Positions 14,095-37,558 of a DNA stretch of 64,000 bases are shown one piece after another. How positions within the stretch are numbered: position 1 is the first letter of the stretch; every line of letters begins with the position of its first letter. Below the pieces are notes generated by a model. It made no database searches and was not told the DNA's origin. It saw nothing but the letters and a program-made list of their open reading frames with translations. Source of the DNA: an uncultured Bacteroidales bacterium (GTDB lineage: Bacteria > Bacteroidota > Bacteroidia > Bacteroidales > UBA10428); NCBI GenBank assembly GCA_963752195.1, contig CAVVXI010000004.1, positions 261,641 to 325,640 on the forward strand, read 5' to 3'. The translations under genes and the position numbers were made by a program.

Positions 14095-14095
14095 G

Positions 14096-14127
14096 GAGGG
14101 ACAAGGGACGAGGGACGAGGGACGAGG
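14096..14127 (+). repeat. Heptad tandem repeat (GAGGGAC/AAGGGAC) x4.6
   Basis: Read directly: gagggac aagggac gagggac gagggac gagg, starting 2 nt after the cysD stop. G-rich on the sense strand. Confidence 0.95.
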
Positions 14128-14155
14128 AAAACCAAATCACAGGCATAAATCGTAC

Positions 14156-14176
14156 AGACAAGGCATTGCCTTGTCT
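14156..14176 (+). repeat. Near-perfect palindrome/hairpin AGACAAGGCA-t-TGCCTTGTCT
   Basis: 10-nt arms are exactly complementary, giving an effective 8-bp stem with a 5-nt loop. No T-tract follows. Confidence 0.85.
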
Positions 14177-14193
14177 CTACAACCTTCTTCCCT

Positions 14194-14249
14194 TACCGAA
14201 TACCGAATACCGAATACCGAATACCGAATACCGAATACCGAATACCGAT
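14194..14249 (+). repeat. Heptad tandem repeat (TACCGAA) x8
   Basis: Seven perfect TACCGAA units plus one TACCGAT, ending 21 nt before the cysN ATG. Confidence 0.95.
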
Positions 14250-14270
14250 TACTAACAACAGAATACCACT

Positions 14271-15551
14271 ATGACATCTCATCAGGAAAGACACAACGGA
14301 TACCTCGATATGGAATTGCTGCGATTTACCACCGCAGGCAGCGTGGATGACGGAAAAAGCACCCTTATCGGCCGGTTGTTGTATGACAGCAAGGCCATCT
14401 TTGAAGATCAGCTTGAGGCTCTTGAAAAAGCCAGCATAAACCGCGGGGAAGAACAGATCAACCTTTCCCTTCTTACGGACGGTCTTCGTGCGGAACGGGA
14501 ACAGGGGATTACAATCGATGTGGCCTACCGGTATTTTGCGACCCCCCGGCGAAAATTCATTATTGCCGATACCCCCGGTCATATACAATATACGAGGAAC
14601 ATGGTAACGGGAGCTTCTACGGCTAATGCCGCACTGATCCTGGTTGATGCGCGCAATGGAATCGTTGAACAAACCATCCGGCATTGTTTTATCGCTTCCC
14701 TGCTTCAGATTCCCCATGTGATTGTTTGTGTGAATAAGATGGACCTTGTAGGTTACAAGGAGGACGTTTTTGAAAAAATTCAGCATGATTTTAATAAGTT
14801 CTCAGATAAACTCGACATACGGGATATCTACTTTATTCCCATCAGTGCATTAAAAGGTGATAATGTGGTCGATCGTTCACAATTTATGAACTGGTACCAG
14901 GGTCCCACGCTGATGTACTCCCTGGAGCACCTGCATATCAGCAACGATCAGAATTTCATAGATCCCCGTTTTCCAGTTCAGTATATCGTAAGGCCTAACA
15001 GCGATGAATATCACGATTTCCGAGGCTATGCCGGCCGGGTAGCCGGGGGGGTGTTCCGCCCGGGCGAAAAAGTGGTCGTGCTTCCCTCGGGATTCACGAG
15101 CCGGATAAAATCCATTCACATGATGAATGAAACGCTTGAACTGGCTTTTCCTCCCCAGTCAGTAACCATCACTCTTGAAGATGACATTGATATCAGCAGA
15201 GGCGATATGATTGTAAAGGAAAACAATATGCCTCAGAAGGGCCAGGATATTACAGCGATGATCTGCTGGCTGAATGAGAAACCGATGCGTCCCGGTGCAA
15301 AATACTGGGTGAGGCACACCACGCGGGAAGCAAGATGCATCGTTCATGAGGTGAACTACAAAATAGACATAAACAGCCTGGGCAAAAATTACGACGACAA
15401 GAACATTGGTCTGAATGAAATTGCGGAAGTTACGCTCCGCACAACGCAGCCCTTATTTTTCGATTCATATCGGAAAAACAGGATTACCGGTTCGCTGGTG
15501 CTGGTGGATGAAGGTACGAACGAAACGATCTGCGCAGGGATGATTTTGTAG
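14271..15551 (+). CDS. cysN: Sulfate adenylyltransferase subunit 1 (GTPase, no APS-kinase domain)
   Basis: 426 aa. Translational-GTPase motifs GSVDDGKSTLIGRLL, DTPGH, NKMD. Adjacent to cysD. Confidence 0.93.
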   Translation: MTSHQERHNGYLDMELLRFTTAGSVDDGKSTLIGRLLYDSKAIFEDQLEALEKASINRGEEQINLSLLTDGLRAEREQGITIDVAYRYFATPRRKFIIADTPGHIQYTRNMVTGASTANAALILVDARNGIVEQTIRHCFIASLLQIPHVIVCVNKMDLVGYKEDVFEKIQHDFNKFSDKLDIRDIYFIPISALKGDNVVDRSQFMNWYQGPTLMYSLEHLHISNDQNFIDPRFPVQYIVRPNSDEYHDFRGYAGRVAGGVFRPGEKVVVLPSGFTSRIKSIHMMNETLELAFPPQSVTITLEDDIDISRGDMIVKENNMPQKGQDITAMICWLNEKPMRPGAKYWVRHTTREARCIVHEVNYKIDINSLGKNYDDKNIGLNEIAEVTLRTTQPLFFDSYRKNRITGSLVLVDEGTNETICAGMIL

Positions 15552-15552
15552 T

Positions 15553-15598
15553 CCGCGGGCCATGGGCCGCCGTGGGCCGCCGTGGGTTTTACCCACGG
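15553..15598 (+). repeat. GC-rich ~10-nt repeats (CATGGGCCGC/CGTGGGCCGC/CGTGGG) ending in a hairpin CCGTGGG-tttta-CCCACGG
   Basis: Read directly. Four GGG runs at 15557, 15564, 15574 and 15584, with a 7-bp stem at 15580-15598. Starts just after the cysN stop. Confidence 0.85.
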
Positions 15599-15610
15599 TT
15601 ATTAAGATCA

Positions 15611-15626
15611 GGCCCCTTCGGGGCCG
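15611..15626. terminator. GC hairpin GGCCCC-ttcg-GGGGCC between convergent cysN and the NlpC/P60 gene
   Basis: Perfect 6-bp GC stem with a UUCG-type tetraloop. No clear U-tract, so terminator function is inferred from position only. Confidence 0.45.
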
Positions 15627-15638
15627 AGAGCCTACAGC

Positions 15639-16452
15639 CTAACTCACAATCCTTCTCACTTCCTTTAACGAATGGGTATAGTCACCGCTTTCACGATTGA
15701 ATATGCCTTTTTCATCCAACAGGTCAATTCTTACCCATCCGGAACAATGGATGATTTGTTTATCCGCGAGAACCATTCCTACATGATTCACTTCGCCGGT
15801 ATCGTTGGAAAAGAAGGCAAGATCCCCGGGAACTGCATCTTTCAGCAACGGAATAAAACCACCCTCAAATACCTGCGGGCCGGTATCCCGCGGTAGGAAT
15901 TGCCCGTGAATCTTATATACCGTTTGTATGAAACCGGAACAATCAAAACCGAAAACCGATCTTCCACCCCATAAATAGGGGGTATTCATAAACTGCTGTG
16001 CTGTTTCAAAAATTTTTTGGGAAGGAGGAAGTAACAATTCGCCAATTAAAGGTCTGATTCTGAATTTTTGCTTTCCCATCATGAATTCCTGGTTCACTTT
16101 AATGTAATTTCGTAGACTGCTTCCCGCCGGAATAAGTTGTGTTGAACCGTCCGGCATTTCAATTTCACTGATTCTCGAATAAAGGACATTCGGCATAGGG
16201 TCTGTAATTCCTTCTTGCAACAGCCACTTCTCTGTAAAATTTCCGGTCTATCCAGCCAGTGAAATGATCAAATGACGTAGTTATTTTCAACCACTTATCC
16301 AAATTCCCATCCACCCTGTAATATTCGCCAAAGAGCAACTGGCTGGTCATTTCGGATTGTTCCTGCGGGGCTTTTCTTATAGGCACCACCGCCACCATGC
16401 ATACACCTGGTTTAACGCTGTGTTGAATAATATCGTGCAAAGATTTTGTCAT
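15639..16452 (-). pseudogene. NlpC/P60 (C40) peptidase with N-terminal SH3-like domain, interrupted by a frameshift
   Basis: Two overlapping ORFs: 16165-16452 is the SH3-like part (QLLFGEYYRVDGNLDKWLKITT...GWIDRKFY), and 15639-16220 is the C40 catalytic part (YLWGGRSVFGFDCSGFIQTVY...HVGMV). Together they make one normal-length protein if a single frame change near 16200-16235 is removed. Confidence 0.7.
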
Positions 16453-16587
16453 ACGGCATGAACTTCGGTAACTATATGTTGTTTAAAGGATATCAATAGA
16501 TTATTTTTCCTTATTTTGTACAAAGTTAACGTAAGCCAATACATTTTTTTCCTGAAGTACAAAATATAACCATTTGCCACAAAGATC

Positions 16588-18726
16588 ATGATTTTGAATT
16601 TCATACGTACCCACATCCGTTCAATTATCATCCTTTTCATTTTTGTTGTCACTTCTGTCATAATCATATACTTATTGCCGCATGAGGGCAAGTTCATGTA
16701 CGAATACCAGAAAGGCGGCTTCTGGAAACATGAAAGCCTGACGGCTCCTTTTAATTTTCCTGTAAACAAGACAAAGGCTGAAATCGATCGGGAACGTGAC
16801 TCGGTAATGCATGAATTTAAACCCATTTTTGTTTATGATAATAAAATAGGCCCTCAACGAATACAGGAAATGGAAGAGGACTTTACCGCCAGCTGGATTG
16901 AATATTCCATGGCGCTTTTTAAGATACCTTCACGCAACGAATATAAATCGAACCGGAAATATGAGATGAACCGCCAGCTGGAGGATGATTATCGGAATTA
17001 TATAGGATCTCTCTTACACGAAATATACCTGAAGGGAATTATAGATGCCGGCCCTCTTGAAGATAACGGACAGTTGAAATATTCAGATGTTACTGTTGTG
17101 AAAGGAAATGTTGCGGAAAACTATCCATTTTCAGAGTTGTATACTCCCAAAACAGCCTATGAATATACTACAACACGGTTAAAAAACAGTATACCAAAAA
17201 AAAACAGCCTTCTTGTACATAAATATAACCAATTCTTTCTTGATTTCCAGATCAATAATTACCTTTCGATCAATGTCACCTATGACGAAGAAAGATCCAC
17301 CAAAGTACACCAGGGCCTGCTTGAAAGCATTTCAAGCACCCGAGGTTTAATACAGGAGGGACAAGGAATTATTTCGAGGGGAGAGAACATTACGGATGAA
17401 AAATTTATGATCCTCGAATCTTTGAGGCAGGAGTATGAAAAAAACCTGGGTTCCATGGCCCGCCAGCTTGTAATCATTGGAAAGTTCATCCTGGTGTTTG
17501 CTTCGCTTATGGTAATATTCCTTTTTCTGAAAAGCTACAGAAAGGAAATATTGGAAAGTTACCGGAAGATTTTATTCATTTTGCTTACCATAGTTCTTAT
17601 GGTACTGGTGGCCAGTACGACCCTGAAATTCAACCTGGTTAGCATTTATTTACTTCCATTTGCCATACTGCCTATTATTCTAAAGACTTTCTTTGACTCA
17701 AGGCTGGCCCTTTTTGTCCATATAATAACCATTTTACTCGTCGGTTTCTTCGCTCCCAACAGTTTTGAATTCGTTTTTCTGAATGTGGTGGCCGGTATGG
17801 TGGCTATTATAAGCCTTACTAACGTTTACCGGCGTTCAAAGCTTGTGGTTACTTCCCTGTATGTGATTATGGCCTATTCCATAATTTACCTCGGAATTGC
17901 ACTGGTCCAGGAAGGCAGCCTGGCACGGATTGAATGGAAATATTTCCGGCTGTTTGGCGTAAATGGGATCCTGGTAATGATATCATATCCACTGATCTTT
18001 ATGTTTGAGAAAACATTCGGATTCATGTCTGACGCTACGCTCATGGAATTATCTGATACCAACCAGCCGCTGCTTCGCAAACTGGCGGAAGTTGCACCGG
18101 GTACCTTCCAGCATTCGTTGCAGGTGGCTAACCTCGCGGAAGATGCAGTATTCCAGGTTGGAGGGAATCCACTGCTTGTCAGGGCCGGTGCTCTTTACCA
18201 TGATATCGGCAAGATGGATGAACCGCTGTATTATATCGAAAACCAGACCTCTTCCATCAATCCCCACGATAACCTTGAATTTGAACAAAGCGCCCGTATC
18301 ATCATTGATCATGTGAGAAAAGGTGTGGATATGGCAAAAAAGAACAAGCTTCCGGAAGCTATCATTGAGTTTATCCGGTCGCATCATGGCACAACAACAG
18401 TGCAGTATTTCTATCGCTCCTATCTGAGAAAATACCCCGAAGCGGACGTGGATGTCAGGAAATTTTCCTATCCCGGACCACGACCAGGTTCCAGGGAGAC
18501 GGCTATTGTTATGATGGCTGATTCCGTAGAAGCCGCCTCACGAAGCCTTAAAGAAATTACCGAAAATACCCTGGATAAACTGGTTGATAGTATTATTGGC
18601 AATCAAATGACGGAAGAACAATACAATGATGCCCAGATCACATTCAAGGAAATCACCACCATCCGGGAAGTTTTTAAAAAACGCCTTCGTAATATATATC
18701 ACGCCCGTATCTCATACCCCACATAA
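16588..18726 (+). CDS. 7TM-receptor HD/HDIG phosphohydrolase (PgpH/YqfF-like)
   Basis: 712 aa. N-terminal extracytoplasmic region, a block of ~7 TM helices, and a C-terminal HD domain (HSLQVANLAE, YHDIGK, SHHG). Confidence 0.85.
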   Translation: MILNFIRTHIRSIIILFIFVVTSVIIIYLLPHEGKFMYEYQKGGFWKHESLTAPFNFPVNKTKAEIDRERDSVMHEFKPIFVYDNKIGPQRIQEMEEDFTASWIEYSMALFKIPSRNEYKSNRKYEMNRQLEDDYRNYIGSLLHEIYLKGIIDAGPLEDNGQLKYSDVTVVKGNVAENYPFSELYTPKTAYEYTTTRLKNSIPKKNSLLVHKYNQFFLDFQINNYLSINVTYDEERSTKVHQGLLESISSTRGLIQEGQGIISRGENITDEKFMILESLRQEYEKNLGSMARQLVIIGKFILVFASLMVIFLFLKSYRKEILESYRKILFILLTIVLMVLVASTTLKFNLVSIYLLPFAILPIILKTFFDSRLALFVHIITILLVGFFAPNSFEFVFLNVVAGMVAIISLTNVYRRSKLVVTSLYVIMAYSIIYLGIALVQEGSLARIEWKYFRLFGVNGILVMISYPLIFMFEKTFGFMSDATLMELSDTNQPLLRKLAEVAPGTFQHSLQVANLAEDAVFQVGGNPLLVRAGALYHDIGKMDEPLYYIENQTSSINPHDNLEFEQSARIIIDHVRKGVDMAKKNKLPEAIIEFIRSHHGTTTVQYFYRSYLRKYPEADVDVRKFSYPGPRPGSRETAIVMMADSVEAASRSLKEITENTLDKLVDSIIGNQMTEEQYNDAQITFKEITTIREVFKKRLRNIYHARISYPT

Positions 18727-18760
18727 AAAACCCCTTCCCGCCTCAGGCGAAAAGGGGTCT
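18725..18760. terminator. Bidirectional terminator-like hairpin
   Basis: CCCCTT..CGCC-tca-GGCG..AAGGGG with an A6 tract on the left (T6 on the minus strand). Lies between the convergent HD gene and the small lipoprotein gene. Confidence 0.6.
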
Positions 18761-18802
18761 ATTCTTTAATTTCTTCCCCTTGTATAGTTGATAATCAAAT
18801 GA

Positions 18803-18976
18803 TTACTGAACTACTGCTGCTGTATCTGCGGCAACTGTATCAGGAGTTGCCATAGGAGCTTCTTCTACTACGGTTGAATCAACTGCAGGAGCTTCAGCGG
18901 TTTTTGATTTGCAGGAACTTAGGGCAATAACACCAAAGAATGCGAAAGCAACAAAAACATAAGCTATCTTTTTCAT
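18803..18976 (-). CDS. Small (57 aa) lipoprotein
   Basis: Below the ORF-track size cut-off. MKKIAYVFVAFAFFGVIALSSCKSKTAEAPAVDSTVVEEAPMATPDTVAADTAAVVQ has a clear signal peptide and lipobox (LSSC), with a terminator hairpin ~45 nt downstream. Confidence 0.6.
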   Translation of the reverse strand: MKKIAYVFVAFAFFGVIALSSCKSKTAEAPAVDSTVVEEAPMATPDTVAADTAAVVQ

Positions 18977-19390
18977 TTTTTAAATTTTTGATGTGAATTA
19001 TAAGTTAATTAATCGCAGCAAAAATAGTAAATTAATTTATTTTACAATTTAATTTTTTTAGTTATTTGAATAATAGTGCATTAAAAATGCAATTTAACGG
19101 TTTACTTTTACTATATATTAACGAGTGTCAATTATTAAGTCAAAGAAAAACAATCTCTTACTAAAAATAACATGTTAACATACTTGTTAGTAAATATTAC
19201 TCCCCAATTTAGGATGATTTTATTCTGATTAAATGAATTCGCCTCTCTTTCGTTGCACTACCCCTTCACGGTAATATGGTATTAACAAAATTACTATTTC
19301 AGCGTTATGTATGATAAAAAAAGGGAGTCTTGTGAAAAAAAAGCAATATTTGCTTTTACTTCCAGTCTTTAGCGCTCTATTTCTTTTATC

Positions 19391-21364
19391 ATGATTTGTA
19401 AAACCCCATCCTTGTTATTAAAAGCCGTTTTAATCAGCTTCATGAGTTGTTCCCTTGTTCCGGTTATCCATGGGCAATCGGATACACTAACAGACAAATC
19501 CAAAGTAACTGAAATTGATAAGGTTGAAGTAACCGGTTATCGCAACCAATCTGTTTTCACCGATGGATCAAGGGTAGTTTCGGTTATCCCGGGCGATGAA
19601 TTGAAGAAAGCCGGCATTCAAAGTTTGCAGGATGTACTTGAATTCGCATCAAACATCGATGTGAGGCAACGCGGAGGATATGGCGTTCAGGCGGACGTAA
19701 CGATCAGGGGAGGGTCATTTGATCATGTAATGGTACTTATAAACGGGATCAATGTCAGCGATCCGCAAACCGGGCATGCCAGTATGGATCTTCCGATCGA
19801 TCCGGAAATGATTGAGCGTATTGAGATTCTTGAAGGTTCTGCAGCTCGTATTCTGGGGGCCGGTGCATTTACAGGAGCCATTAATGTGGTTACCCGGGGC
19901 GATAACTCCACCCAGGGCAGTGCCAGTCTGTTTATGGGTCAGTATGGCTTTCATCGTCTCAATCTGAATGCCATTATTAATAATTCCGGTTTCCGGCATA
20001 CACTTTCCTTTGGAGAGGCCTCATCGAAAGGATATATGGATGACACGGATTTCAAAATAAGAAATGGCTATTACAGGTTAAATTACGTGCGTGAGAATAC
20101 GGCAATTGATTTTCAGGCCGGAGTACAGGATAAGAAATTCGGGGCAGCCGGTTTTTACTCTCCCCGGTTTCCGAATCAGTATGAAGAAACCGGACTTTGG
20201 TTTGCCAGCCTGAGAGCATCCACAGGAAACAAGGTCAAGGTTTCCCCGTCTGTTTACTGGCGCCATCGCAGGGATCATTATTTGCTCGACAGGGATAACC
20301 CGTCCTTTTATGAAAATTTCCATCTTACGGATATTATTGGCAGTCAGTTTAATGTATCCTGGCGGATGCATAAAGTTTTGAATACGGTAGGTGTAGATGT
20401 CCGGTCGGAAAACATCATCAGCAACAACCTGGGTTTTGTTCGTCCCGATCCGGTACCGGTAAGAGGAACAGATAGTGCATTTTATACGAAGCAATATGGA
20501 AGGACAAACATCGCCTATTTCCAGGAACATGCATTCAATGCCGGCAACTTCAGGATATCCGGGGGGGTCATGATAAACTGGAATTCAGCATATCCCAATA
20601 AACCATCCGTGTTTCCCGGTCTGGATGTAAGCTACCGGCTGATTCCCGAAACCCGTATTTTCTTCAGTTTCAACAGGGCGTTGCACCTGCCGACCTTTAC
20701 CGATTTGTTCTACACGGATCCGGTAAACCAGGGAAATATCCATTTGAACCCAAACAGGATGATTTCCTATGAAGGAGGAATTAAATTTGACGGAAGGATA
20801 GCCGATGCCAATCTTGTTTTCTTTCAGAATACGGGAAAAGATATAATTGACTGGCTTTGGTCTTATGGCCAGAACCGGTTCAGTCCGGTTAACCTGGATC
20901 ACTTTCGTTCATTGGGATTGGAAACGGGATTATCTTTTCATTTTAATAATTCCGACGGATTGAATCCGGTTCAATCCCTCACAATAAATTACCTTTTTAT
21001 GGATATCGACAAATCCGTAAAAGATTCAGTTTCCAAGTACGATCATATTCGCAACAAGCTCTCAATTATAATGCGCCATCGTATTTACCGGAATATAGAG
21101 GCGATCTGGTTAGTAAGTTACCAAAACAGGGTGGGAGAGATGATCGCTTTCAATACATCTGAAAGTGCCTATTATTCAGAGCCGTATTCTCCATATTGGT
21201 TACTTGACGCAACGTTAAACTGGCATATGCGGCATATGGTGTTGTTTGCCACAGTTACCAATATTCTGGATACAGATTACACGGATGCCGGTTCGGTCAC
21301 ACAGCCCGGGCGATGGTTCAAGGCAGGATTAACATTGATGTTTGGAAAAAAAGAAGGAATGTAG
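19391..21364 (+). CDS. TonB-dependent receptor (plug + 22-strand barrel type)
   Basis: 657 aa. Signal peptide, plug motifs (VEVTGY, IRGG, NGINVSDP, IERIEILEGSAARILGAGA) and a C-terminal barrel. Confidence 0.85.
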   Translation: MICKTPSLLLKAVLISFMSCSLVPVIHGQSDTLTDKSKVTEIDKVEVTGYRNQSVFTDGSRVVSVIPGDELKKAGIQSLQDVLEFASNIDVRQRGGYGVQADVTIRGGSFDHVMVLINGINVSDPQTGHASMDLPIDPEMIERIEILEGSAARILGAGAFTGAINVVTRGDNSTQGSASLFMGQYGFHRLNLNAIINNSGFRHTLSFGEASSKGYMDDTDFKIRNGYYRLNYVRENTAIDFQAGVQDKKFGAAGFYSPRFPNQYEETGLWFASLRASTGNKVKVSPSVYWRHRRDHYLLDRDNPSFYENFHLTDIIGSQFNVSWRMHKVLNTVGVDVRSENIISNNLGFVRPDPVPVRGTDSAFYTKQYGRTNIAYFQEHAFNAGNFRISGGVMINWNSAYPNKPSVFPGLDVSYRLIPETRIFFSFNRALHLPTFTDLFYTDPVNQGNIHLNPNRMISYEGGIKFDGRIADANLVFFQNTGKDIIDWLWSYGQNRFSPVNLDHFRSLGLETGLSFHFNNSDGLNPVQSLTINYLFMDIDKSVKDSVSKYDHIRNKLSIIMRHRIYRNIEAIWLVSYQNRVGEMIAFNTSESAYYSEPYSPYWLLDATLNWHMRHMVLFATVTNILDTDYTDAGSVTQPGRWFKAGLTLMFGKKEGM

Positions 21365-21377
21365 GCAATGCCTTTGT

Positions 21378-21641: not shown

Positions 21642-21731
21642 ACTTCATTTAAATTTATAGTGAATGCAGGATCTGACTGTCTTTGGATGTAAAACAAACG
21701 ACTATCTCTTTTGTTGAATAATTTTGTTTTG

Positions 21732-28029: not shown

Positions 28030-28030
28030 A

Positions 28031-28058
28031 AGCGACGAGTGACGAGGGACTAGTGACC
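28031..28058 (+). repeat. Degenerate heptad repeat (AGCGACG AGTGACG AGGGACT AGTGACC)
   Basis: Read directly, starting 2 nt after the tnaA-like stop. Related to the GGGACG heptad family and inverted relative to 28236-28263. Confidence 0.85.
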
Positions 28059-28092
28059 AGGTTGATAAGTCTTCGAAATTCGATATTCAGTG

Positions 28093-28138
28093 TTCCTTGT
28101 TCGGTGTAATTTAACGTAAAATAATACCGAACAAGGAA
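28093..28138. repeat. Hairpin with perfect 13-bp stem (TTCCTTGTTCGGT / ACCGAACAAGGAA), 20-nt loop
   Basis: Read directly. Confidence 0.9.
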
Positions 28139-28168: not shown

Positions 28169-28236
28169 CTGCAAAACTGCAAAACTGCAAAACTGCAAAA
28201 CTGCAAAACTGCAAAACTGCAAAACTGCAAAACTGC
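28169..28236 (+). repeat. Octamer tandem repeat (CTGCAAAA) x8.5
   Basis: Eight perfect units plus CTGC. Confidence 0.95.
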
Positions 28237-28263
28237 CTTGTCCCTTGTCCCTCGTCACTCGTC
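28236..28263 (-). repeat. Heptad repeat, reverse orientation (minus strand GACGAGT GACGAGG GACAAGG GACAAGG)
   Basis: Plus strand reads ccttgtc ccttgtc cctcgtc actcgtc. Overlaps the last codons and stop of the ADH gene. Confidence 0.9.
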
Positions 28264-29298
28264 ACTAAATTGAATCATCGCCTTCATCACCCCGTCTTTG
28301 TATCCGGCAACCATATCAAAGGCACGGGGGGTCTCTGAAAAGCTGAACCGGTGCGTTGCCATGAGGCTGACGTCGATTTTTCCGGTTGACATGGAATGAA
28401 GGGCATCTTCCGTACAATCCACCTGCCTGCGGATATTTTGTATTATGATTTCCTTTCTGCGAGCGACATCTGCTGGAACTTTCCAAAAATCAAATTCGGG
28501 AATGCCAACAGCAACGAGCTTTCCTCCCGGTTTCAGTAATTCGAAGGCCTGGCCAAACGCTTCCTGCTGGCCGCAGCATTCAAAAATCACGTCAAGCATC
28601 AGGGGTTCGATCCCGAGTATTTCTTTTACAACATCCTGTTTCTCAACATTGCCCGCATAGGTTGCGCCGGCATTTTTCACAATCCTCAGCCGTTCATCCA
28701 GTTTATCCGTCATGTAAATCTTTTCGCATCCCCCGGCTTTGGCAGCCAGCAATACACTCATACCGATGGGGCCGGAACCAAGTATGCCAATCCGGGCTCC
28801 CTCCATTGGTATCGATTTTCGAACCGCATACACACCAATGGCAAGGGGTTCCGAAATAACCGCATGCTCCAGGCTAAGGTGATCATCTATCCGGATGCAA
28901 CTTGTCTCAGGCATAATGATATATTCTGTAAGACAACCATCGGCTTGTCCCGGACAACCCAAAAACCGCAGATTTCGACAGGTATGATGCCGGCCGGCCA
29001 TACATTGATCACACTCCCAGCATGGCATTGCAGGTTCGATGGCAATCCGGTCACCGGCTTTTACACGGGTAACCCCCGGTCCGGTTTTTATAACTATGCC
29101 TGCACCTTCATGTCCGACCGGAAATGGATATTGCACAACCTGGCTGCCGATTTTACCGGCAACATAATAATGAATATCGGATCCACAGACACCCACTACA
29201 GCCATTTTAATTAATACATCAGTATCATTCTTCAGCACAGGATCCGGAATATTTTTCATCTCCATCTTCCTGATGCCGGTGAGCATCATGGCTTTCAT
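28255..29298 (-). CDS. Zinc-dependent alcohol/polyol dehydrogenase (MDR family)
   Basis: 347 aa. GVCGSDIHYY, GHEGAG, a Cys cluster (CWECDQCMAGRHHTC) and a GxGxxG Rossmann motif (ILGSGPIG). Confidence 0.88.
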   Translation of the reverse strand: MKAMMLTGIRKMEMKNIPDPVLKNDTDVLIKMAVVGVCGSDIHYYVAGKIGSQVVQYPFPVGHEGAGIVIKTGPGVTRVKAGDRIAIEPAMPCWECDQCMAGRHHTCRNLRFLGCPGQADGCLTEYIIMPETSCIRIDDHLSLEHAVISEPLAIGVYAVRKSIPMEGARIGILGSGPIGMSVLLAAKAGGCEKIYMTDKLDERLRIVKNAGATYAGNVEKQDVVKEILGIEPLMLDVIFECCGQQEAFGQAFELLKPGGKLVAVGIPEFDFWKVPADVARRKEIIIQNIRRQVDCTEDALHSMSTGKIDVSLMATHRFSFSETPRAFDMVAGYKDGVMKAMIQFSDE

Positions 29299-30468: not shown

Positions 30469-30479
30469 TTTGTCAGCTT

Positions 30480-30863
30480 TTAACTTGCCTGGAAAATTCT
30501 GACAGGCTGAAATTGAAGAACATTTTTTACTTTGTCGTAAAAATGATGTTGATTCAAAGGTTTGTTGAATGTAGCTTCCACGCCCAGCTTTTTCGCAACA
30601 TACAAGTAGTAAGGCTTGCTTCCGCTGATTGCGATGATTTTCAGATTTGGATGATGTTTTTTTACTTCCCTTATCATTTCCGTTCCTTCCATCACGGGCA
30701 TAATAATATCGGTGATAACCAGGTCATATATTTTGGATGATATTTTTTCCAAACCTTCTCTTCCGTCGGAAGCTTCGTCAAATTCAAGATTTTCGTTGCG
30801 GAAAAGGTTAATGATCAATCTGCGCATCATTACATTATCATCTACAAGCAATATCTTCTTCAT
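30480..30863 (-). CDS. Single-domain response regulator (receiver)
   Basis: MKKILLVDDN..., LVITDIIMP, IAISG, NKP. The start was moved to the ATG at 30863 rather than the track start 30899. Confidence 0.85.
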   Translation of the reverse strand: MKKILLVDDNVMMRRLIINLFRNENLEFDEASDGREGLEKISSKIYDLVITDIIMPVMEGTEMIREVKKHHPNLKIIAISGSKPYYLYVAKKLGVEATFNKPLNQHHFYDKVKNVLQFQPVRIFQAS

Positions 30864-31144
30864 ATGACCCGATTTTAATATAAATTTTGAAAAAGGCACT
30901 TCTATAAAAGTTTGATTATATGATGTTAAACGACTGTCATTCTTTTTGGTTGGAAATATTAAAGTAACAACCTATAATCATTGACGAACGAATCAAATTG
31001 AATGGCTAATGCTATACAGCAGGATTTCTTTGAAATGGAAGAATTGTTTTTTCTCAAATTCATCCCTGATTATATTAAATTTACCTGATGGATTGTTAAT
31101 TGCATGTTTTTGCAGTGACCTGACTTATCACTAAAACCCGGATA

Positions 31145-32092
31145 ATGATGAAAAGAATTCTAGTAACAGGAGGAGCAGGATTCATAGGATCTCATGTATG
31201 TGAAAGGCTTTTAGCGGAAGGGAATGACGTGATATGTCTCGATAATTACTTCACCGGATCCAAAGAAAATGTTGTTCATCTGCTGGATAGTCATTATTTT
31301 GAGCTGGTGAGGCATGACGTAACCACACCTTATTATGCCGAAGTGGATGAAATTTACAACCTTGCCTGTCCGGCTTCTCCCATCCATTACCAGTTTAATC
31401 CCATAAAAACAATCAAAACTTCCGTTATGGGAGCGATTAACATGCTGGGTCTGGCAAAGCGAGTAAAAGCCAAAATATTACAGGCCTCAACAAGTGAGGT
31501 TTATGGAGATCCGGAAGTGCATCCGCAGGTTGAGGGTTACTGGGGCCATGTTAACCCTATCGGAATCCGTTCCTGCTACGATGAAGGAAAGAGGTGTGCA
31601 GAATCTCTTTTTATGAACTACCATTATCAGAACAAAGTAAAAATTAAGATTGTCAGGATTTTTAATACCTATGGACCCAGGATGTTACCGAATGACGGGC
31701 GTGTGGTTTCGAATTTTATAGTTCAGGCACTCGGAAACAGGGATATCACAATATTCGGGGACGGAAACCAGACTCGCAGTTTTCAATATGTCACCGATCT
31801 GGTGCAGGGGATGATTAGTATGATGAACAGCAGGGATGACTTCAGGGGACCGGTAAATATTGGAAATCCTCATGAATTCACCATCAAGAAATTAGCCGAA
31901 ACTGTGATTGGCCTTACCGGTTCAAGATCAAAAATAATTTATATGCCTCTCCCTGAGGATGATCCGATGCAGCGGCAACCTGATATAAGCCTGGCCAGGA
32001 AGGAGTTGAACGATTGGGAACCTACCGTGGATCTTGAAAAAGGACTCATTCAAACGATTGGGTATTTCAGGAAAAGATTACATTCTGTCTGA
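31145..32092 (+). CDS. UDP-glucuronate decarboxylase (UDP-xylose synthase)
   Basis: 315 aa. SDR fold with [22 protein letters not shown] and overall UXS-like sequence. Confidence 0.88.
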
Positions 32093-32181
32093 ACGGTGGA
32101 ATCCTTGCCATAAAATTGGGTCAACAGGTTTTTGTTTGTTGCGATATGCTTATATTCGATGAATAATTTAACGCGCGGGAA

Positions 32182-33642
32182 ATGAAAAACAAAATCTATA
32201 ACAAATTTCTGGTTCTTGTGGCTGCCTTGTCACTTATGGGTATTTGCAGTTCATCGTTTGATAACGGGATTACGGATAATTCCCGCTTACAGCCCACAAT
32301 CAAAGACTGGGTTAACAAAGGAGCAGACCAAACAGGGAACGGTTTCACCTTTGCAAAAAAAGACGCCAGTTTATCTACAAAGGCAAACCTTAAAAATTTC
32401 ATTCTTAATTTACGCATTAAGACTTCTGCCGGCGCTGAAGGGATAATATTATTCCATGCATCAGCTGACGGAAAGGACTTAGCCAGGGGATATCGGGTAA
32501 TTATTAATAACAGCGATTACAGGGCCGGAAACCCTCAAAAAACGGGTAGCCTGGCATATATTCGTAATAATTTCGTTCGAAACGCTTCAGAGGATACATG
32601 GTTTGATATGCAGGTCTTTGTGAAGTCAAACCATATTTCAGTAAAGGTGAATGATAAACTCATCAGTGATTATATTGAACCGCTGAAACCACAGCGCATT
32701 AAAGGGAAGGAAGGAATGGTCCTTTCATCCGGCCGGGTAATTATACAAAAGAACAGTGAGTCAGGGAGTATTCAGATAGATCAGATCAGCATTGCGTCCC
32801 TGCCGGATTCACCCCCTGAAATACCCGATCCACTGACCGTGGATTCTGTTGGCGAAGCGCTGACAAAGCTGAACCAGATGGGTTATCCTTTAATTGACTT
32901 CCATGGTCATTTAAAAGGGGGGTTAACGGTGGATCAGGTAAGTGAACATGGTAGAAAATATGGTTACAACTATGGGATCTCTCCTAACTGTGGATTGAAT
33001 TTTCCGGTAACAAATGATTCTTCTTTAAGCGCATATTATAATAGTCTCGCTCCTGAACCCGTATTTAAAGCAATGCAGTGTGAAGGAAGAGAATGGATAA
33101 CCCTCTTCTCCCCGGAAGTAATAAGCCGGTTCGATTACATTTTTACGGATGCAATGACGTGGACAGATCACAAAGGACGTCGGATGAGGCTCTGGATCCC
33201 GGCCGAAACATTTGTTGATGATGAACAACAATTCATGGAAATGCTGGTAGGAAAAATTGAGGCCATCTTAAACAATGAACCTGTGGATATACATGTAAAT
33301 CCTACATATTTACCTGCCGTTATAGCCGCCGACTATGATAAACTCTGGACTCCCGGGAGAATGGACCGCGTGATTAAAGCATTAAAAGATAACGACGTAG
33401 CTCTTGAAATTAATGCCCGGTTTAAAATTCCGAGCCTTGCCTTTATAAAAAGAGCCCGGACGGCCGGAGTTAAATTTTCGCTGGGCACAAACAATGCCGA
33501 CAATACTGATCTGAACCGGCTTGAATATTGTATTAGGATAATTGAACAAGCCGGGATCACACCACAGGATATATTCCTGCCCAGACCTTCAGGAGATAAA
33601 AAAGTATTGAAAAAAGGATTGCCGGCAAAAATTACCGGATAA
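32182..33642 (+). CDS. Secreted fusion: DUF1080/LamG-like domain + PHP-like metal hydrolase domain
   Basis: Signal peptide. N-terminal half has the DUF1080 pattern (NFILNLRIKTSAGAEGIILFHAS...GYRVIINN...WFDMQVFVKSNHISVKVND). C-terminal half has IDFHGH and ALEINA, reminiscent of the PHP/HisJ family. Confidence 0.5.
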   Translation: MKNKIYNKFLVLVAALSLMGICSSSFDNGITDNSRLQPTIKDWVNKGADQTGNGFTFAKKDASLSTKANLKNFILNLRIKTSAGAEGIILFHASADGKDLARGYRVIINNSDYRAGNPQKTGSLAYIRNNFVRNASEDTWFDMQVFVKSNHISVKVNDKLISDYIEPLKPQRIKGKEGMVLSSGRVIIQKNSESGSIQIDQISIASLPDSPPEIPDPLTVDSVGEALTKLNQMGYPLIDFHGHLKGGLTVDQVSEHGRKYGYNYGISPNCGLNFPVTNDSSLSAYYNSLAPEPVFKAMQCEGREWITLFSPEVISRFDYIFTDAMTWTDHKGRRMRLWIPAETFVDDEQQFMEMLVGKIEAILNNEPVDIHVNPTYLPAVIAADYDKLWTPGRMDRVIKALKDNDVALEINARFKIPSLAFIKRARTAGVKFSLGTNNADNTDLNRLEYCIRIIEQAGITPQDIFLPRPSGDKKVLKKGLPAKITG

Positions 33643-33665
33643 ACTCAATTTCAGAATATTTTTTA

Positions 33666-33687
33666 TGCATTTTTGCAAAAAAATGCA
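33666..33687 (+). promoter_or_regulatory. Perfect inverted repeat TGCATTTTT-gcaa-AAAAATGCA upstream of speA
   Basis: Read directly. Ends 23 nt before the speA ATG. Candidate operator or 5' UTR hairpin. Confidence 0.3.
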
Positions 33688-33709
33688 GATTTATTAATTT
33701 TTGGCAGCA

Positions 33710-35602
33710 ATGAGAAAATGGCGCATAGATGACTCGGCAGAACTGTATAATATCCAGGGATGGGGAGTAAACTATTTTTCTATAAATGACAAGGGAAATG
33801 TAACGGTTTCACCTCGCAAAGATGGTTTTGAAATTGATTTGCGGGGTCTTGTGGATGAGCTGATCCTCCGTGATGTATCAGCTCCTATGCTTATCCGTTT
33901 TCCGGATATCCTGGATAACCGGATCGAGAAGATGGCAAAGTGTTTTGAAGTTGCAGCAAAAGCTTATAAATATAACGCCCAGAATTTTATCATATACCCG
34001 ATAAAGGTTAACCAGATGCGTCCTGTGGTGGAGGAAATAGTCAGGCATGGCAAAAAATTCAACATCGGACTGGAAGCAGGTTCTAAACCTGAACTTCATG
34101 CTGTTATTGGAATCAATGCTGACAGTGACTCCCTGATCATTTGCAACGGTTACAAAGATGAGGATTATGTAGAACTTGCCCTGTTGGCCCAGAAGATGGG
34201 CAAACGGATTTACCTTGTCGTTGAAAAACTGAATGAACTGAAATTGATTGCTTCGGTAGCCCGAAGGCTTAAGATAAAGCCCAATATGGGCATTCGCATA
34301 AAGCTTGCAAGCACGGGAAGTGGCAAATGGGAAGATTCGGGCGGAGACGTGAGTAAGTTCGGACTCACTTCCAGCGAGGTTCTGGAAGCAATGGATTTTC
34401 TTGAAAAGAATAAAATGAAGGACTGTCTTCACCTGGTTCATTTTCATATCGGTAGCCAGGTGACGAAAATCCGTCGTATCAAAACCGCTTTGCGCGAAGC
34501 ATCACAATTTTATGTTCAATTATTTAAAAATGGGTATAACATTGATTTTGTGGATATTGGCGGTGGATTGGGAGTGGATTATGACGGTACCCGTTCCGCC
34601 AACAGCGAAAGCAGTGTTAATTACAGCCTGCAGGAATACGTAAATGACTCAATTTATACAATGGTTGATGCAAGTGATAAAAATGGTATTCCGCATCCCA
34701 ATATCATAACCGAATCCGGTCGGTCACTTACTGCTCATCATTCCGTACTTATTTTCGAAGTATTGGAAACCACAACATTACCTGAATGGAGTGATGAGAC
34801 GCAGCCCGGTACGAGTGATCACGAATTGGTTCAGGAGTTGTATTCCTCATGGGACAGGTTGAATCAAAGTGGCATGCTTGAAACCTGGCATGACGCAGAA
34901 CAAATCCGGGAAGAAGCACTCGACAGGTTCAGCCTTGGTTTGCTGGATCTGAAAACCCGTGCACAGATTGAGCGTTTGTTCTGGTCTATTGCCAGGGAAC
35001 TATACCAGATGACCAATGAAACAAAACACGTTCCGGAAGAACTCAGGCATTTACCTAAAATATTGTCCGATAAATATTTTTGTAATTTTTCCCTGTTCCA
35101 ATCCATGCCTGATTCCTGGGCAATTGATCAGATATTTCCCATAGTTCCTCTTCAAAGGCTTGATGAGAAGCCAACTCGGGCAGCCACTCTTCAGGATATA
35201 ACCTGCGATTCTGACGGTAAAATTGACAATTTTATATCAACCCGCAATTTTTCATACTATCTTCCCGTACATTCAATTAAACAAAAGGAACCCTATTATC
35301 TGGGTGTATTTCTTGTAGGGGCTTACCAGGAAATACTCGGAGATCTTCACAACCTGTTTGGCGATACCAATGCCGTACATGTATCGGTTACAGATAAGGG
35401 GTATGAAATTGATCAGATCATTGATGGCGAAACGGTTGCTGAAGTTCTTGACTATGTGCAATACAATGCGAAAAAGCTGGTTCGCACCGTGGAAACATGG
35501 GTAACATCTGCAGTCAAATCAGAAACCATTACAGCGGAAGAAGGGAAAGAATTTCTTTCCACATACAGGTCGGGATTATATGGTTATACCTACTTGGAGT
35601 AG
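33710..35602 (+). CDS. speA: Biosynthetic arginine decarboxylase
   Basis: ~630 aa. MRKWRIDDSAELYNIQGWG N-terminus, PLP-lysine context IIYPIKVNQ, FHIGSQ, GGGLGVDYDG. The track start 33701 is TTG; the first ATG is 33710. Confidence 0.93.
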   Translation: MRKWRIDDSAELYNIQGWGVNYFSINDKGNVTVSPRKDGFEIDLRGLVDELILRDVSAPMLIRFPDILDNRIEKMAKCFEVAAKAYKYNAQNFIIYPIKVNQMRPVVEEIVRHGKKFNIGLEAGSKPELHAVIGINADSDSLIICNGYKDEDYVELALLAQKMGKRIYLVVEKLNELKLIASVARRLKIKPNMGIRIKLASTGSGKWEDSGGDVSKFGLTSSEVLEAMDFLEKNKMKDCLHLVHFHIGSQVTKIRRIKTALREASQFYVQLFKNGYNIDFVDIGGGLGVDYDGTRSANSESSVNYSLQEYVNDSIYTMVDASDKNGIPHPNIITESGRSLTAHHSVLIFEVLETTTLPEWSDETQPGTSDHELVQELYSSWDRLNQSGMLETWHDAEQIREEALDRFSLGLLDLKTRAQIERLFWSIARELYQMTNETKHVPEELRHLPKILSDKYFCNFSLFQSMPDSWAIDQIFPIVPLQRLDEKPTRAATLQDITCDSDGKIDNFISTRNFSYYLPVHSIKQKEPYYLGVFLVGAYQEILGDLHNLFGDTNAVHVSVTDKGYEIDQIIDGETVAEVLDYVQYNAKKLVRTVETWVTSAVKSETITAEEGKEFLSTYRSGLYGYTYLE

Positions 35603-36790
35603 ATGGATTTTAATGCAGACAGGGATAAACTTTACAGGCTGATTACTGAGAATGCCGGGGATGTTATCTGGATCATGGATGTTGAAAAGGGAAAGTTTAC
35701 CTATGTAAGTCCGTCGGTTCAGAAATTGCGTGGTTTTTCGCCGGAAGAAGTCATCAATCAACCTGTTTCAGAAGTATTAACCCCGGAAAGCTATCAGTTC
35801 ATTCTCAATAATCTGGGAATGCGGATTGAACAATTTTCGCAGGGCAATGATTCCCTTCGGGTAATGGTTCATGAAATGGATCAGACGTGCAAGGATGGGT
35901 CAATAGTTCATACAGAGGTGGTTACAACCCTGATGACAAATAAAGAAGGCAGGGTAAATGAGATCCTTGGAGTGTCAAGGGACATTACGGAACGTAAACT
36001 TGCACAGCAGGAAATTGCACGCTTAAATGGGGAACTTGAACAACGAATTGCAGAAAGAACTTCCCAGCTATTAATTTCAAATAACGAGCTCGAAGCTTTT
36101 ACCTATTCCGTATCGCACGATCTGAGGGCACCCTTGCGTGCCATTAATGGCTTTTCCACAATCCTTTCCAGGGAATACTCCGGCTGCCTTGACTTGGAGG
36201 CCAAAAGGCTGTTGAATATTATATGCGACAATGTGAAAAAAATGGATCGTCTGATCACCGATTTATTGGCTTTTTCACGACTATCCCGAAGCGAGATCAA
36301 TCTGCATCGTACAGCTATGAATTCAATTGTTAGTGCAGCCTTTGATTCCAATTCTTCCGATGAGGACAGAAAGAATATCAGGTTCATACTCCACGATCTT
36401 CCTGATGTGCCTTGTGATCCGACGTTAATGGGCCAGGTATGGGGTAACCTTATCTCCAATTCCATCAAGTTTACTTCGCCAATGAAAGAGCGTATCATCG
36501 AAATTTCCGGAAAAAGGGATGGGAATAAAACGGTTATTTATGAAATTAAGGATAATGGGGTAGGATTTAACCCAAAATATAAAAATAAGCTATTTGAGGT
36601 CTTCCAGCGATTGCATAAGATGGATGAATTTGAGGGATCCGGGGTTGGACTTGCTATTGTCAAACGTATTGTAAACAGGCACGGGGGTGTTGTTTCTGCC
36701 GAAGGAAAAGAAGGACTGGGTTCCAAATTTACAATTTCACTCCCCAATACACCCTTCAAGGGTGCCACCCTTGAAGGGTGCCACCCTTGA
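35603..36790 (+). CDS. PAS sensor histidine kinase (cytoplasmic, orphan)
   Basis: 395 aa. PAS region (ENAGDVIWIMDVEKGKFTYVSPSVQKLRGFSPEE), H-box SVSHDLRAPLRAINGF and HATPase boxes. The ATG directly abuts the speA stop (TAGATG). Confidence 0.88.
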   Translation: MDFNADRDKLYRLITENAGDVIWIMDVEKGKFTYVSPSVQKLRGFSPEEVINQPVSEVLTPESYQFILNNLGMRIEQFSQGNDSLRVMVHEMDQTCKDGSIVHTEVVTTLMTNKEGRVNEILGVSRDITERKLAQQEIARLNGELEQRIAERTSQLLISNNELEAFTYSVSHDLRAPLRAINGFSTILSREYSGCLDLEAKRLLNIICDNVKKMDRLITDLLAFSRLSRSEINLHRTAMNSIVSAAFDSNSSDEDRKNIRFILHDLPDVPCDPTLMGQVWGNLISNSIKFTSPMKERIIEISGKRDGNKTVIYEIKDNGVGFNPKYKNKLFEVFQRLHKMDEFEGSGVGLAIVKRIVNRHGGVVSAEGKEGLGSKFTISLPNTPFKGATLEGCHP

Positions 36791-36795
36791 AGGGT
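36751..36795. repeat. Three tandem 16-nt palindromic units (ACCCTT[C/G]AAGGGT + GCC)
   Basis: Read directly. Contains the HK stop (36788-90) and touches the yjbQ stop (36795-97). Confidence 0.9.
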
Positions 36796-37211
36796 CATTC
36801 ACCGATAATTTTTACCAGAACCCGTTTCCTGCGCTTGCCGTCAAATTCGCCATAGAAGATCTGTTCCCAGGGACCAAAGTCCATTTTTCCGGCAGTAACT
36901 GCCACCACAACTTCCCGGCCCATCAGTGTTCTTTTGATATGAGCATCGGCATTGTCTTCAAAACCGTTGTGTTTGTATTGCGAATAGGGCTTTTCCGGAG
37001 CCAGTTTTTCAAGCCATACTTCAAAGTCGTGATGCAGGCCCGATTCATCATCATTTATAAAAACACTGGCGCTGATGTGCATGGCATTTACAAGGATGAG
37101 GCCTTCTTTGATCCCGCTTTCAGCCAGGCACTGTCCCACCTGGCCTGTTATGTTGATAAATGCTCTGCGGGTGGGTACTTCGTACCATAGTTCCTTCCTG
37201 TATGTTTTCAT
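36795..37211 (-). CDS. yjbQ: YjbQ/UPF0047 family protein (secondary thiamine-phosphate synthase-like)
   Basis: 138 aa. Characteristic ITGQV...[26 protein letters not shown]...DNADAHIK...[13 protein letters not shown]. Confidence 0.85.
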
Positions 37212-37332
37212 GGATTTATATTTTTCAATAACTTCTTTCCAAGGCCATTATCCCCCAACTGGCGGGGGTTGGGGGGTGGACTTTGACCATTTTTCTACCG
37301 ATAGCGAATCCCTACGGGATTTTCCCCTAATT

Positions 37333-37556
37333 CGTCCCTCGTCCCTGGTCCCTCGTTCCTCGTCCCTGGTCCCTCGTCCCTGGTCCCTGGTCCCTCGTCC
37401 CTCGTCCCTCGTCCCTCGTCCCTCGTCCCTCGTCCCTCGTCCCTCGTCCCTTGTCCCTCGTCCCTTGTCCCTCGTCCCTCGTCCCTCGTCCCTCGTCCCT
37501 TGTCCCTCGTCCCTCGTCCCTTGTCCCTCGTCCCTCGTCCCTCGTCCCTTGTCCCT
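37333..37556 (-). repeat. 32-unit heptad microsatellite: plus strand (CGTCCCT)n, minus strand (AGGGACG)n
   Basis: Counted unit by unit: 22 CGTCCCT, 4 GGTCCCT, 5 TGTCCCT, 1 CGTTCCT, giving exactly 224 nt. Lies between the pgm stop (37559-61) and the yjbQ start (37211). Confidence 0.97.
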
Positions 37557-37558
37557 AA

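Follow-up and report, generated by a model that had tools for sequence, protein, structure and literature searches.

The stretch of DNA analyzed here (the window) comprises 64,000 nucleotides from an uncultured Bacteroidales bacterium (contig CAVVXI010000004.1 of assembly GCA_963752195.1, positions 261,641 to 325,640), and the present analysis concerns the G-rich tandem heptanucleotide arrays found in it at the stop codons of four genes. The host genes were checked by Pfam and are functionally unrelated: cysD (PAPS_reduct), a beta-eliminating lyase gene, a zinc alcohol dehydrogenase gene (ADH), and the phosphoglucomutase gene (pgm). A first-pass annotation of the window had placed such arrays, with the G-rich strand as the sense strand, at five stops. 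The cysD, lyase, ADH, and pgm cases hold as described, at the positions below, while the repeat behind cysN is of another kind and is treated separately.

14096-14127, plus strand: cysD array (GAGGGAC)x4.6, with four GGG tracts, beginning 1 nt past the cysD TGA (14092-94)
28030-28061, plus strand: lyase array AAGCGACGAGTGACGAGGGACTAGTGACCAGG, read as AAGCGAC GAGTGAC GAGGGAC TAGTGAC CAGG, directly past the TAG of the beta-eliminating lyase (28027-29)
28236-28266, minus strand: ADH array, AGTGAC GAGTGAC GAGGGAC AAGGGAC AAGG in the sense direction, the inverted partner of 28030-28061
37332-37556, minus strand: pgm array (RAGGGAC)x32, which is (TCGTCCC)x32.1 on the plus strand and reads TAA-TTA-GGGAC after the pgm stop (37559-61)

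Direct reading and Tandem Repeats Finder show that all four are tandem copies of the heptamer RAGGGAC (equivalently GGGACRA), with the variants AAGGGAC, CAGGGAC, GAGTGAC, TAGTGAC, and AAGCGAC; the program assigns them period 7 and copy numbers of 4.6, 3.4, 3.0, and 32.1. In 4 of 4 cases the G-rich strand is the sense strand of the ending gene, and in 4 of 4 the array either overlaps the stop codon or lies in the first untranslated nucleotides. The lyase array has a single GGG tract and constitutes the 5' arm of a spacer-wide hairpin. The ADH array has two GGG tracts and contains the TGA of its gene (28255-57, minus strand) together with the last codons, AGT GAC GAG TGA (S-D-E). The pgm array is placed between pgm and the co-directional YjbQ gene.

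The pattern proposed with the annotation, in its three-unit form GNGACNRGNGACNRGNGAC, matches the window 33 times, whereas 100 dinucleotide shuffles contain 0 matches. None of the 33 lies outside the four arrays, all of which are G-rich on the sense strand of the ending gene. The placement and orientation are thus far from chance, as the annotation had supposed, and the same bias recurs in other genomes. The count of five independent cases, in turn, reduces to one unrelated decamer and a single family at three loci, with an inverted pair at one of these. The lyase and ADH arrays cannot be regarded as fully independent, because both are inverted arms of one convergent-gene spacer.

A search of the whole window against Rfam 15 at the gathering threshold gave 0 matches, and exact-sequence look-ups of the window pgm and cysD proteins matched no contigs. 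We have also considered replication-strand orientation as the cause of the strand bias and rejected it, since both orientations occur within 25 kb and track gene direction rather than GC skew. Nor do the arrays sit where phase-variation simple sequence repeats (SSRs) do, in promoters or 5' coding regions of surface or virulence genes; they lie at 3' ends, and only the last 2-3 codons of ADH fall within one.

Persistence and Turnover in Related Genomes

The comparison of orthologous spacers is based on loci of related genomes, namely, four syntenic loci from independent assemblies with pgm at 92-94% identity (L121, L122, L204, and L205), and L123 (87%), L206 (85%), and L207 (80%). Two further loci, L055 and L112, share one contig with L122, which is from an uncultured Bacteroidales metagenome-assembled genome (MAG). 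An array is present at the pgm stop in 5 of the 5 genomes with pgm at or above 92% identity (the window, L121, L122, L204, and L205), and arrays stand at both ends of the lyase/ADH spacer in 4 of the 4 genomes whose loci reach those genes. The arrays thus persist at the same gene ends, while the copy number and the spelling of the unit change. At the pgm stop there are 32 units in the window versus 2-4 in the other four genomes, some of these being TAGTGAC, TAGGGAC, or TGGGGAC. The spelling depends on the genome, with GTGAC prevailing in L121 and GGGAC in L122 as well as in the window. Most arrays in the window and its relatives have about four units, the 32-unit pgm array being an outlier.

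In L122 and L205 many genes are split (e.g., those of an S1-domain protein, a nucleoside triphosphate (NTP) transferase, and GMP synthase), suggesting frequent indel errors. The pgm of L122 reads as 590 aa, and we have considered whether the array is translated there. This was rejected, as the extension is probably due to a 1-nt indel: L122 has a single extra T relative to L204, and many other genes of this assembly are split.

These observations bear on whether the arrays could be an artefact of assembly or sequencing, which we regard as very improbable. The count of 32 copies comes from one assembly, the fragmented gene calls of L122 and L205 are typical of long-read indel errors, and the read-through of L122 pgm into the array may itself be a 1-nt indel. 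Against this, arrays occupy orthologous sites in five independent assemblies. They also recur in over 100 assemblies, produced with short-read (NODE_, k141_) as well as long-read (tig, contig_) assemblers to judge by the names of the contigs. The structured interspersion of variant units also argues against an artefact.

Relatives further from the window lack the arrays. In L123 the pgm-yjbQ spacer is filled by an unrelated octamer, (TAACAGAC)x7 at 9263-9320, which spans from 5 nt past the pgm stop to 5 nt before the yjbQ start. No array is found in L206 and L207, in which the pgm-yjbQ gap is only 9-11 nt, and the ADH of L207 ends in ...DFE-TAG with no array. Among distant pgm orthologs from a metagenome scan (at most 71% identity), the first 40 of 80 contain no stop-adjacent repeat; one of these 40 has (TCTCAAT)x3 behind a hairpin, and many have classical terminators. 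In both pgm and ADH the last codon and the original stop, as judged from the outgroups, have been replaced by the array, which is notable with regard to the seeding mechanism at stop codons that the annotation had raised. The pgm protein ends in ...DLKL* or ...DLKLE* where an array is present versus ...DLKLT* or ...DLKLK* in outgroups, and ADH ends in ...F-SDE*, ...F-SDEQ*, or ...F-RD* versus ...DFE*.

In the spacers of the clade, the GGGAC-type array is consistently the first array past the stop, other units lying behind it. Chains of such 7-9-nt arrays, with units including TACGATT, ACCGATT, GTGAATG, GAATTAT, TTCATAA, and AGTAAGG, are seen at 11810-12557 of L121, 11827-11852 of L122, 6279-6418 of L055, and 2655-2687 of L112. 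The lineage appears to be unusually rich in heptamer and octamer microsatellites.

Predicted Folding of the Arrays

Folding with ViennaRNA including G-quadruplex (G4) terms yields -9.1 versus -1.2 kcal/mol for the cysD array. A G4 is predicted for the cysD and pgm arrays but not for those of the lyase and ADH. Four units are the minimum for an intramolecular G4. The G4 as the single unifying feature of the family was considered and rejected, because GTGAC arrays stand at the same sites in relatives and the lyase and ADH arrays are short of GGG tracts. A structural role at the level of RNA, as suggested by the annotation, or of DNA is plausible in view of the cysD prediction and the four-unit mode described below, but a G-quadruplex is not common to all arrays.

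The arrays are also not classical stem-plus-U terminators, in agreement with the annotation: the promoter/terminator scan gave nothing at the arrays, and it called no intrinsic terminator (a GC-rich hairpin followed by a U-tract) at the cysD or cysN spacers. In the predicted folds the arrays themselves are unpaired, and paired arrays form hairpins that lack a U-tract.

The lyase/ADH spacer presents a different picture. Since the own-sense arrays of two convergent genes are inverted complements of each other, the whole spacer folds into one long hairpin. This is predicted in the window and in three relatives, with energies of -43 to -106 kcal/mol and z scores of -4 to -11 versus shuffles. The four spacers differ by 100 nt in length, which made MAFFT/RNAalifold uninformative, and each was thus folded separately. 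The arms pair as GTGAC:GTCAC in L121 and as GGGAC:GTCCC in L122. Such complementarity is compatible with either selection on the stem or gene conversion between the arms.

The persistence of the arrays where the G3 tract is missing raises the alternative that they are the platform on which an oligomeric protein binds RNA or DNA, with a ring-shaped protein coating the 3' untranslated region. By eye, every unit variant displays NAG-N4 at a 7-nt period (GAG-GGAC, AAG-GGAC, TAG-TGAC, CAG-GGAC), which we take to be the distance that separates NAG triplets in sites of the HutP type. Protein-binding triplet arrays of the HutP/TRAP kind combine regularly spaced NAG triplets with a cognate oligomeric protein. 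Arrays that have lost the G3 tract still retain NAG and GAC in place, and each genome has its own unit flavour, as would be expected if the units co-evolve with a trans factor. The positional conservation given in the next section, itself inflated by the search pattern, also points this way. We nevertheless consider the platform improbable: copy numbers range between 2 and 32, a candidate protein has not been identified (none was searched for), and the very distant phyla that share the unit are unlikely to share one specific binding protein.

Occurrence across Phyla

One genome per species was scanned for the pattern GGGACRAGGGACRAGGGAC, covering 185,579 species, and at least 120 loci were obtained. 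The figures in this section refer to the matches listed, and the gene calls in these analyses are long-open-reading-frame heuristics. According to the record titles, the matches come from Bacteroidota, Acidobacteriota, Gemmatimonadota, Planctomycetota, Verrucomicrobiota, Chloroflexota, Proteobacteria, Cyanobacteria, and others. A stop-adjacency measure that is free of gene calling was used, in which a stop codon closing an open frame of at least 100 codons is sought within -12 to +9 nt of the array edge. Such a stop on the G strand lies at the 5' edge of the array in 30/118 cases, compared to 9/118 for the mirror arrangement and 2.4-4.9% for random positions. The distance to the stop peaks at 9 nt or less on the G strand only (21/96 versus 6/96).

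The number of units per array has its mode at four: 16 arrays have three units, 49 have four, 27 have five, and 13 have six. The deficit of three-unit arrays appears to be real, because selecting arrays by three perfect units gives longer ones no more than a mild advantage. All seven unit positions except R are 90-97% conserved, although these values are inflated because the search pattern itself demanded three perfect units.

A downstream inverted partner is another recurrent feature. At least two GTCCC within 250 nt are found downstream of 28/122 arrays and upstream of 3/122, and the duplex between array and flank reaches z ≤ -3 downstream in 37/127 versus upstream in 7/127. About one third of the arrays thus have an inverted C-rich partner downstream, and lone arrays are the majority. 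Inspected examples from Pyrinomonadaceae and other Acidobacteriota, Gemmatimonadaceae, Anaerolineae, Verrucomicrobiota, Gammaproteobacteria (Rudaea), and Bacteroidota have both convergent stops abutted. They share the lyase/ADH layout, in which each convergent stop has a G-array in its own sense and the two arrays are the arms of one long hairpin.

The locus L036 (8000 nt), from an Akkermansiaceae MAG of 71% GC, contains (GTGACGA)x20, a long array of a non-G4 variant, on the minus strand (416-555 in reverse-complement coordinates). Viral contigs rarely contain the unit: 2.9 million of them gave 29 matches, with too few long open reading frames (ORFs) there to add weight.

The inverted arrangement suggests another possibility, namely, that the arrays belong to a mobile miniature element or are the footprint of targeted insertion, either as palindromes resembling MITEs (miniature inverted-repeat transposable elements) or repetitive extragenic palindromes (REPs), or as the product of a dedicated enzyme acting at stop codons. 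Inverted arrays bracket entire convergent spacers, such as that of lyase/ADH. A module of ~130-350 nt (array, conserved AATCCC-NNN-GGGATT hairpin, and further arrays) stands where the outgroup spacer is 9-11 nt, and the replacement of the last codon and stop of pgm and ADH would fit an insertion as well. On the other hand, the cysD, pgm, and lyase/ADH spacers share no internal sequence besides the heptamer, a target-site duplication is not seen, lone arrays predominate, and the unit is rare in viral contigs. No transposase gene, including those of the REP-associated RAYT type, was noted in the window, which was not scanned for one. Taken together, a mobile origin is hardly probable.

Other Repeats in the Window

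The repeat behind cysN and the other features of the array-bearing spacers are the following:

15557-15586, plus strand: cysN decamer (GCCGTGGGCC)x2.8, beginning 5 nt past the cysN stop
14156-14176, plus strand: hairpin AGACAAGGC-ATT-GCCTTGTCT, downstream of the cysD array, with arms resembling one G-unit and one C-unit
14194-14252, plus strand: unrelated heptamer array (TACCGAA)x8.4 in the cysD-cysN spacer, ending 18 nt before the cysN start codon
28093-28138, no strand assigned: central 13-bp hairpin TTCCTTGTTCGGT...ACCGAACAAGGAA of the lyase/ADH convergent spacer, kept in L122
28167-28236, minus strand: octamer array (CAGTTTTG)x8.8 in the ADH sense, AACTGCAA on the plus strand, directly behind the ADH G-array
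37307-37321, minus strand: small hairpin AATCCC-GTA-GGGATT just downstream of the pgm array, kept in four relatives

The GGG runs that the annotation reported behind cysN, at 15557, 15564, 15574, and 15584, are present; the repeat that carries them, however, is a different decamer located within a hairpin. It is made up of a GC-rich hairpin's 5' arm repeated in tandem, the last copy being the 5' arm of CCGTGGG-TTTTA-CCCACGG, and the decamers fold as ordinary hairpins (-48 kcal/mol, z -2.7). The cysN repeat is a different, GC-rich family and is not counted with the RAGGGAC arrays.

The hairpins at 14156-14176, 28093-28138, and 37307-37321, all downstream of arrays, have no U-tract, and the terminator scan made no call at the first of them. 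The placement of (TACCGAA)x8.4 resembles that of the start-codon-proximal heptamer arrays of MacGregor 2015. The octamer behind the ADH array recurs with 3.5 copies at the same place in L122 (19697-19724) and is absent in L121.

Between the pgm array and yjbQ there is a C-rich/G-rich hairpin at 37250-37285 (CCACCCCCCAACCCCCGCCAGTTGGGGGAT on the minus strand), which is absent in the orthologous spacers of L121, L122, and L204. Further along, at 36750-36797, the 16-nt palindrome CACCCTT(C/G)AAGGGTG occurs in three tandem copies. Within or beside the third copy, 4 nt separate the stop of a histidine-kinase gene (TGA 36788-90) from that of the convergent YjbQ gene (36795-97, minus strand). Copies 1-2 encode the last ~12 residues of the kinase, which has 395 aa in the window versus 383 aa in L204.

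At 61403-61456, a 19-nt inverted repeat, GTAGGGACAGGTCGCGACC / GGTCGCGACCTGTCCCTAC, overlaps a 22-nt direct repeat. It lies a few nt past the stop of the ORF at 61458-62153 (minus strand), has GGGAC/GTCCC at its outer ends, and overlaps the 3' end of the plus-strand ORF at 60305-61540. Finally, the regions 2159-6598 and 8203-12948 each hold a ~1000-aa ORF followed by a ~480-aa ORF, spaced as in SusC/SusD-like pairs, for which they are candidates.

Comparison with Known Repeats

Tandem heptanucleotide repeats of cyanobacteria, the short tandemly repeated repetitive (STRR) sequences, were reportedly described by Mazel in 1990. The present arrays are similar to STRR and to long SSRs in being intergenic tandem heptanucleotides of lineage-specific abundance, which are attributed to polymerase slippage. 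The STRR units, however, differ in sequence and are defined in heterocystous cyanobacteria, and the general descriptions come without a stop-codon or strand rule; long SSRs are considered here as presented in MacGregor's paper (Mrazek 2007, via PMC4679880).

The closest match is provided by the G4-forming SSRs of Rehm et al. 2015 (PLoS One, PMC4692102), with the heptameric units GGGAATC in Xanthomonas and GGGGA(C/T)T in Nostoc. Those repeats are dispersed and mostly non-coding, prefer four units, form G4 in vitro, sometimes occur as inverted pairs, and are associated with unrelated genes. They lie within 50 bp of a stop codon or overlap it, the G-rich strand being the coding strand, and are also said to abut start codons on the non-coding strand; their location is conserved between the Xanthomonas genomes Xcc and Xac while their length varies. 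The arrays reported here agree in the 7-nt unit with a tract of at least three G, the stop-proximal placement on the coding strand, the four-unit mode, the inverted pairs, and the unrelated genes. The occupation of the same intergenic site in related species with variable length and sequence is likewise shared (pgm, ADH, and lyase in the window, L121, L122, L204, and L205). They differ in the unit, GGGAC(A/G)A rather than GGGNATC or GGGGA(C/T)T, in the host, an uncultured Bacteroidales bacterium along with many further phyla, in the drift of several arrays to GTGAC, and in being accompanied by non-G-rich 7-8-nt arrays in the same spacer; moreover, the G4 is a prediction here.

A second comparison is with the TAACTGA heptamers of Beggiatoaceae, Cyanobacteria, and five Bacteroidetes, located mostly just upstream of start codons (MacGregor 2015, PMC4679880). 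These are also intergenic, sometimes long, and found with other heptamer arrays, and close relatives lack them at the same sites. TAACTGA, in contrast, has stops in all three forward frames and is start-proximal, whereas the GGGACRA arrays are at stop codons and open in all six frames. The annotation knew of no described element of this kind in Bacteroidota. At the level of the class this does not hold, since Rehm et al. 2015 described the class and heptamer arrays were found in spacers of Bacteroidetes by MacGregor 2015 (PMC4679880). The present arrays fall into the known class of G-rich heptanucleotide microsatellites (long SSR, STRR-like, G4-SSR). What is new is the unit, because GGGAC(A/G)A differs from the published motifs, as well as the lineage and the wide distribution; it is not a new kind of element. 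In the literature consulted, GGGACGA or GGGACAA repeats in bacteria are not mentioned, and the literal unit strings returned only irrelevant eukaryotic papers.

In terms of function, the closest analogy is to the REPs and bacterial interspersed mosaic elements (BIMEs) of enterobacteria, abundant structured repeats past the stops in co-directional and convergent spacers, which stabilize the upstream mRNA. Liang, Rudd, and Deutscher reportedly examined in 2015 the effect of REPs near stop codons, those less than 15 nt from the stop being said to interfere with the terminating ribosome. REPs differ in that they are imperfect palindromes of ~35 nt mobilized by RAYT (REP-associated tyrosine) transposases, while the arrays are tandem heptamers. 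When the arrays were compared with REPs and MITEs, it was found that inverted arrays bracket the lyase/ADH spacer and that the three spacers share the heptamer only.

A possible mechanism is offered by the mitochondrial CSB II (conserved sequence block II), where tracts of G in the non-template strand co-transcriptionally give rise to an RNA:DNA hybrid G4 that brings about termination (PMC3488243, PMC3905843). The non-template G tracts are a common feature, and the effect at CSB II is strand-specific and exerted on the transcribing polymerase. The hybrid G4, however, was demonstrated for mitochondrial and phage-type polymerases and eukaryotic genomes rather than for bacterial gene ends, so that the comparison concerns the possible mechanism only.

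Origin and Possible Role of the Arrays

On the basis of these results, we tentatively favour the view that the arrays are slippage-made microsatellites that are maintained at the cistron's 3' boundary as strand-specific structure modules, in the form of either a G-quadruplex or the arm of a hairpin. Slipped-strand replication would make and resize the arrays, and they would be retained only where the G-rich strand is the non-template strand. A lone array of at least four units could give rise to an RNA G4 or an RNA:DNA hybrid G4, while a paired array could form the stem of a long hairpin. In both situations the structure would begin inside the footprint of the terminating ribosome, and it might bring 3' exonucleases to a halt and/or make RNA polymerase pause or terminate. 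Antisense transcription running back into the gene would be opposed by a G4 on the template strand and by a C-rich transcript favourable to Rho. Such a role would be analogous to that of the REP/BIME elements.

The main rival holds that the arrays are neutral or selfish microsatellites without function, which arise by a high rate of 7-8-nt slippage. They would survive only where they cause no damage, in the short unconstrained stretch that separates a stop codon from the next signal, and only in an orientation that is tolerated, since RNA polymerase would be blocked by G-rich sequence on the template strand and Rho would be loaded within operons by C-rich sense RNA. We consider this explanation rather doubtful but one to be taken seriously. 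The clade spacers are stuffed with unrelated 7-8-nt arrays (TACCGAA, CAGTTTTG, TACGATT, AGTAAGG, GAATTAT, and TAACAGAC), and the host genes have no function in common. The ancestral pgm-YjbQ spacer has 9-11 nt, so any insert there abuts the stop; stop adjacency would thus be largely geometric because the ancestral spacers are tiny. Copy numbers from 2 to 32, the decay of units to GTGAC, and the lack of arrays in slightly more distant relatives are also as expected without function, and Rehm et al. found none for their repeats. However, slippage alone predicts monotonic lengths, yet four-unit arrays are 3 times commoner than three-unit arrays among the matches listed. The GGGAC-type array always comes first after the stop with the other units behind, and the same unit and arrangement occur in many phyla. 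In addition, other sense-strand arrays, such as TACCGAA and TAACAGAC, contain more C than G, and it is thus no general rule that Rho loading is avoided. The function-less explanation thus leaves the four-unit mode and the G-array-first order unexplained; the platform, mobile-element, and artefact explanations are less likely.

A number of observations weigh against a retained structural function, as favoured here. An array is found at only 4 of the ~45 gene ends inspected in the window, and classical hairpin-plus-T terminators exist elsewhere in it, such as those behind 12948 and (minus strand) 25112, which makes the arrays dispensable. Only about one quarter of the arrays among the matches listed abut the stop of a long ORF, as judged by crude gene calls. 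The 32 units of the pgm array are far beyond any structural need, and two arrays lie within probable operons (cysD-cysN and pgm-YjbQ), where termination would harm. Neither the lyase array, with one GGG, nor the ADH array, with two, can form an intramolecular G4, and the same applies to the GTGAC arrays at the same sites in L121 and L205. The complementarity of the inverted arms could be maintained by gene conversion rather than selection. Finally, no function and no regulatory effect emerged from RNA-seq in Xanthomonas (Rehm et al. 2015, PMC4692102).

A wider proposal, which we consider unlikely, is that the stop-abutting G-rich heptamers constitute a convergently evolved pan-bacterial 3'-boundary device, or result from a dedicated process with its starting point at the limit up to which the ribosome shields the nascent RNA.

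Implications

If the pan-bacterial device were real, lone arrays acting as RNA or hybrid G4 and paired arrays acting as spacer-wide hairpins would couple translation termination to 3'-end formation or protection, and genes would be insulated from antisense read-in. The recurrence of GGGACRA across phyla would then reflect a shared constraint of the ribosome, RNA polymerase, or Rho, and not descent.

The present results show that the placement rule known from Xanthomonas and Nostoc also applies to another unit, in a Bacteroidales lineage that is uncultured. As suggested by the genome scan, this very unit obeys the rule in many phyla, which turns a two-lineage curiosity into a broadly testable pattern. 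Natural experiments are available in the form of orthologous sites with 0, 3, 4, or 32 units, of G4-competent versus GTGAC arrays, and of arrays standing alone versus in pairs. Should the arrays determine the 3' ends of mRNAs or prevent antisense transcription, they would represent a non-canonical and easily evolvable alternative to hairpin-plus-U terminators and REPs. If they do nothing, they would provide a clean case of transcription and translation boundaries filtering the survival of microsatellites.

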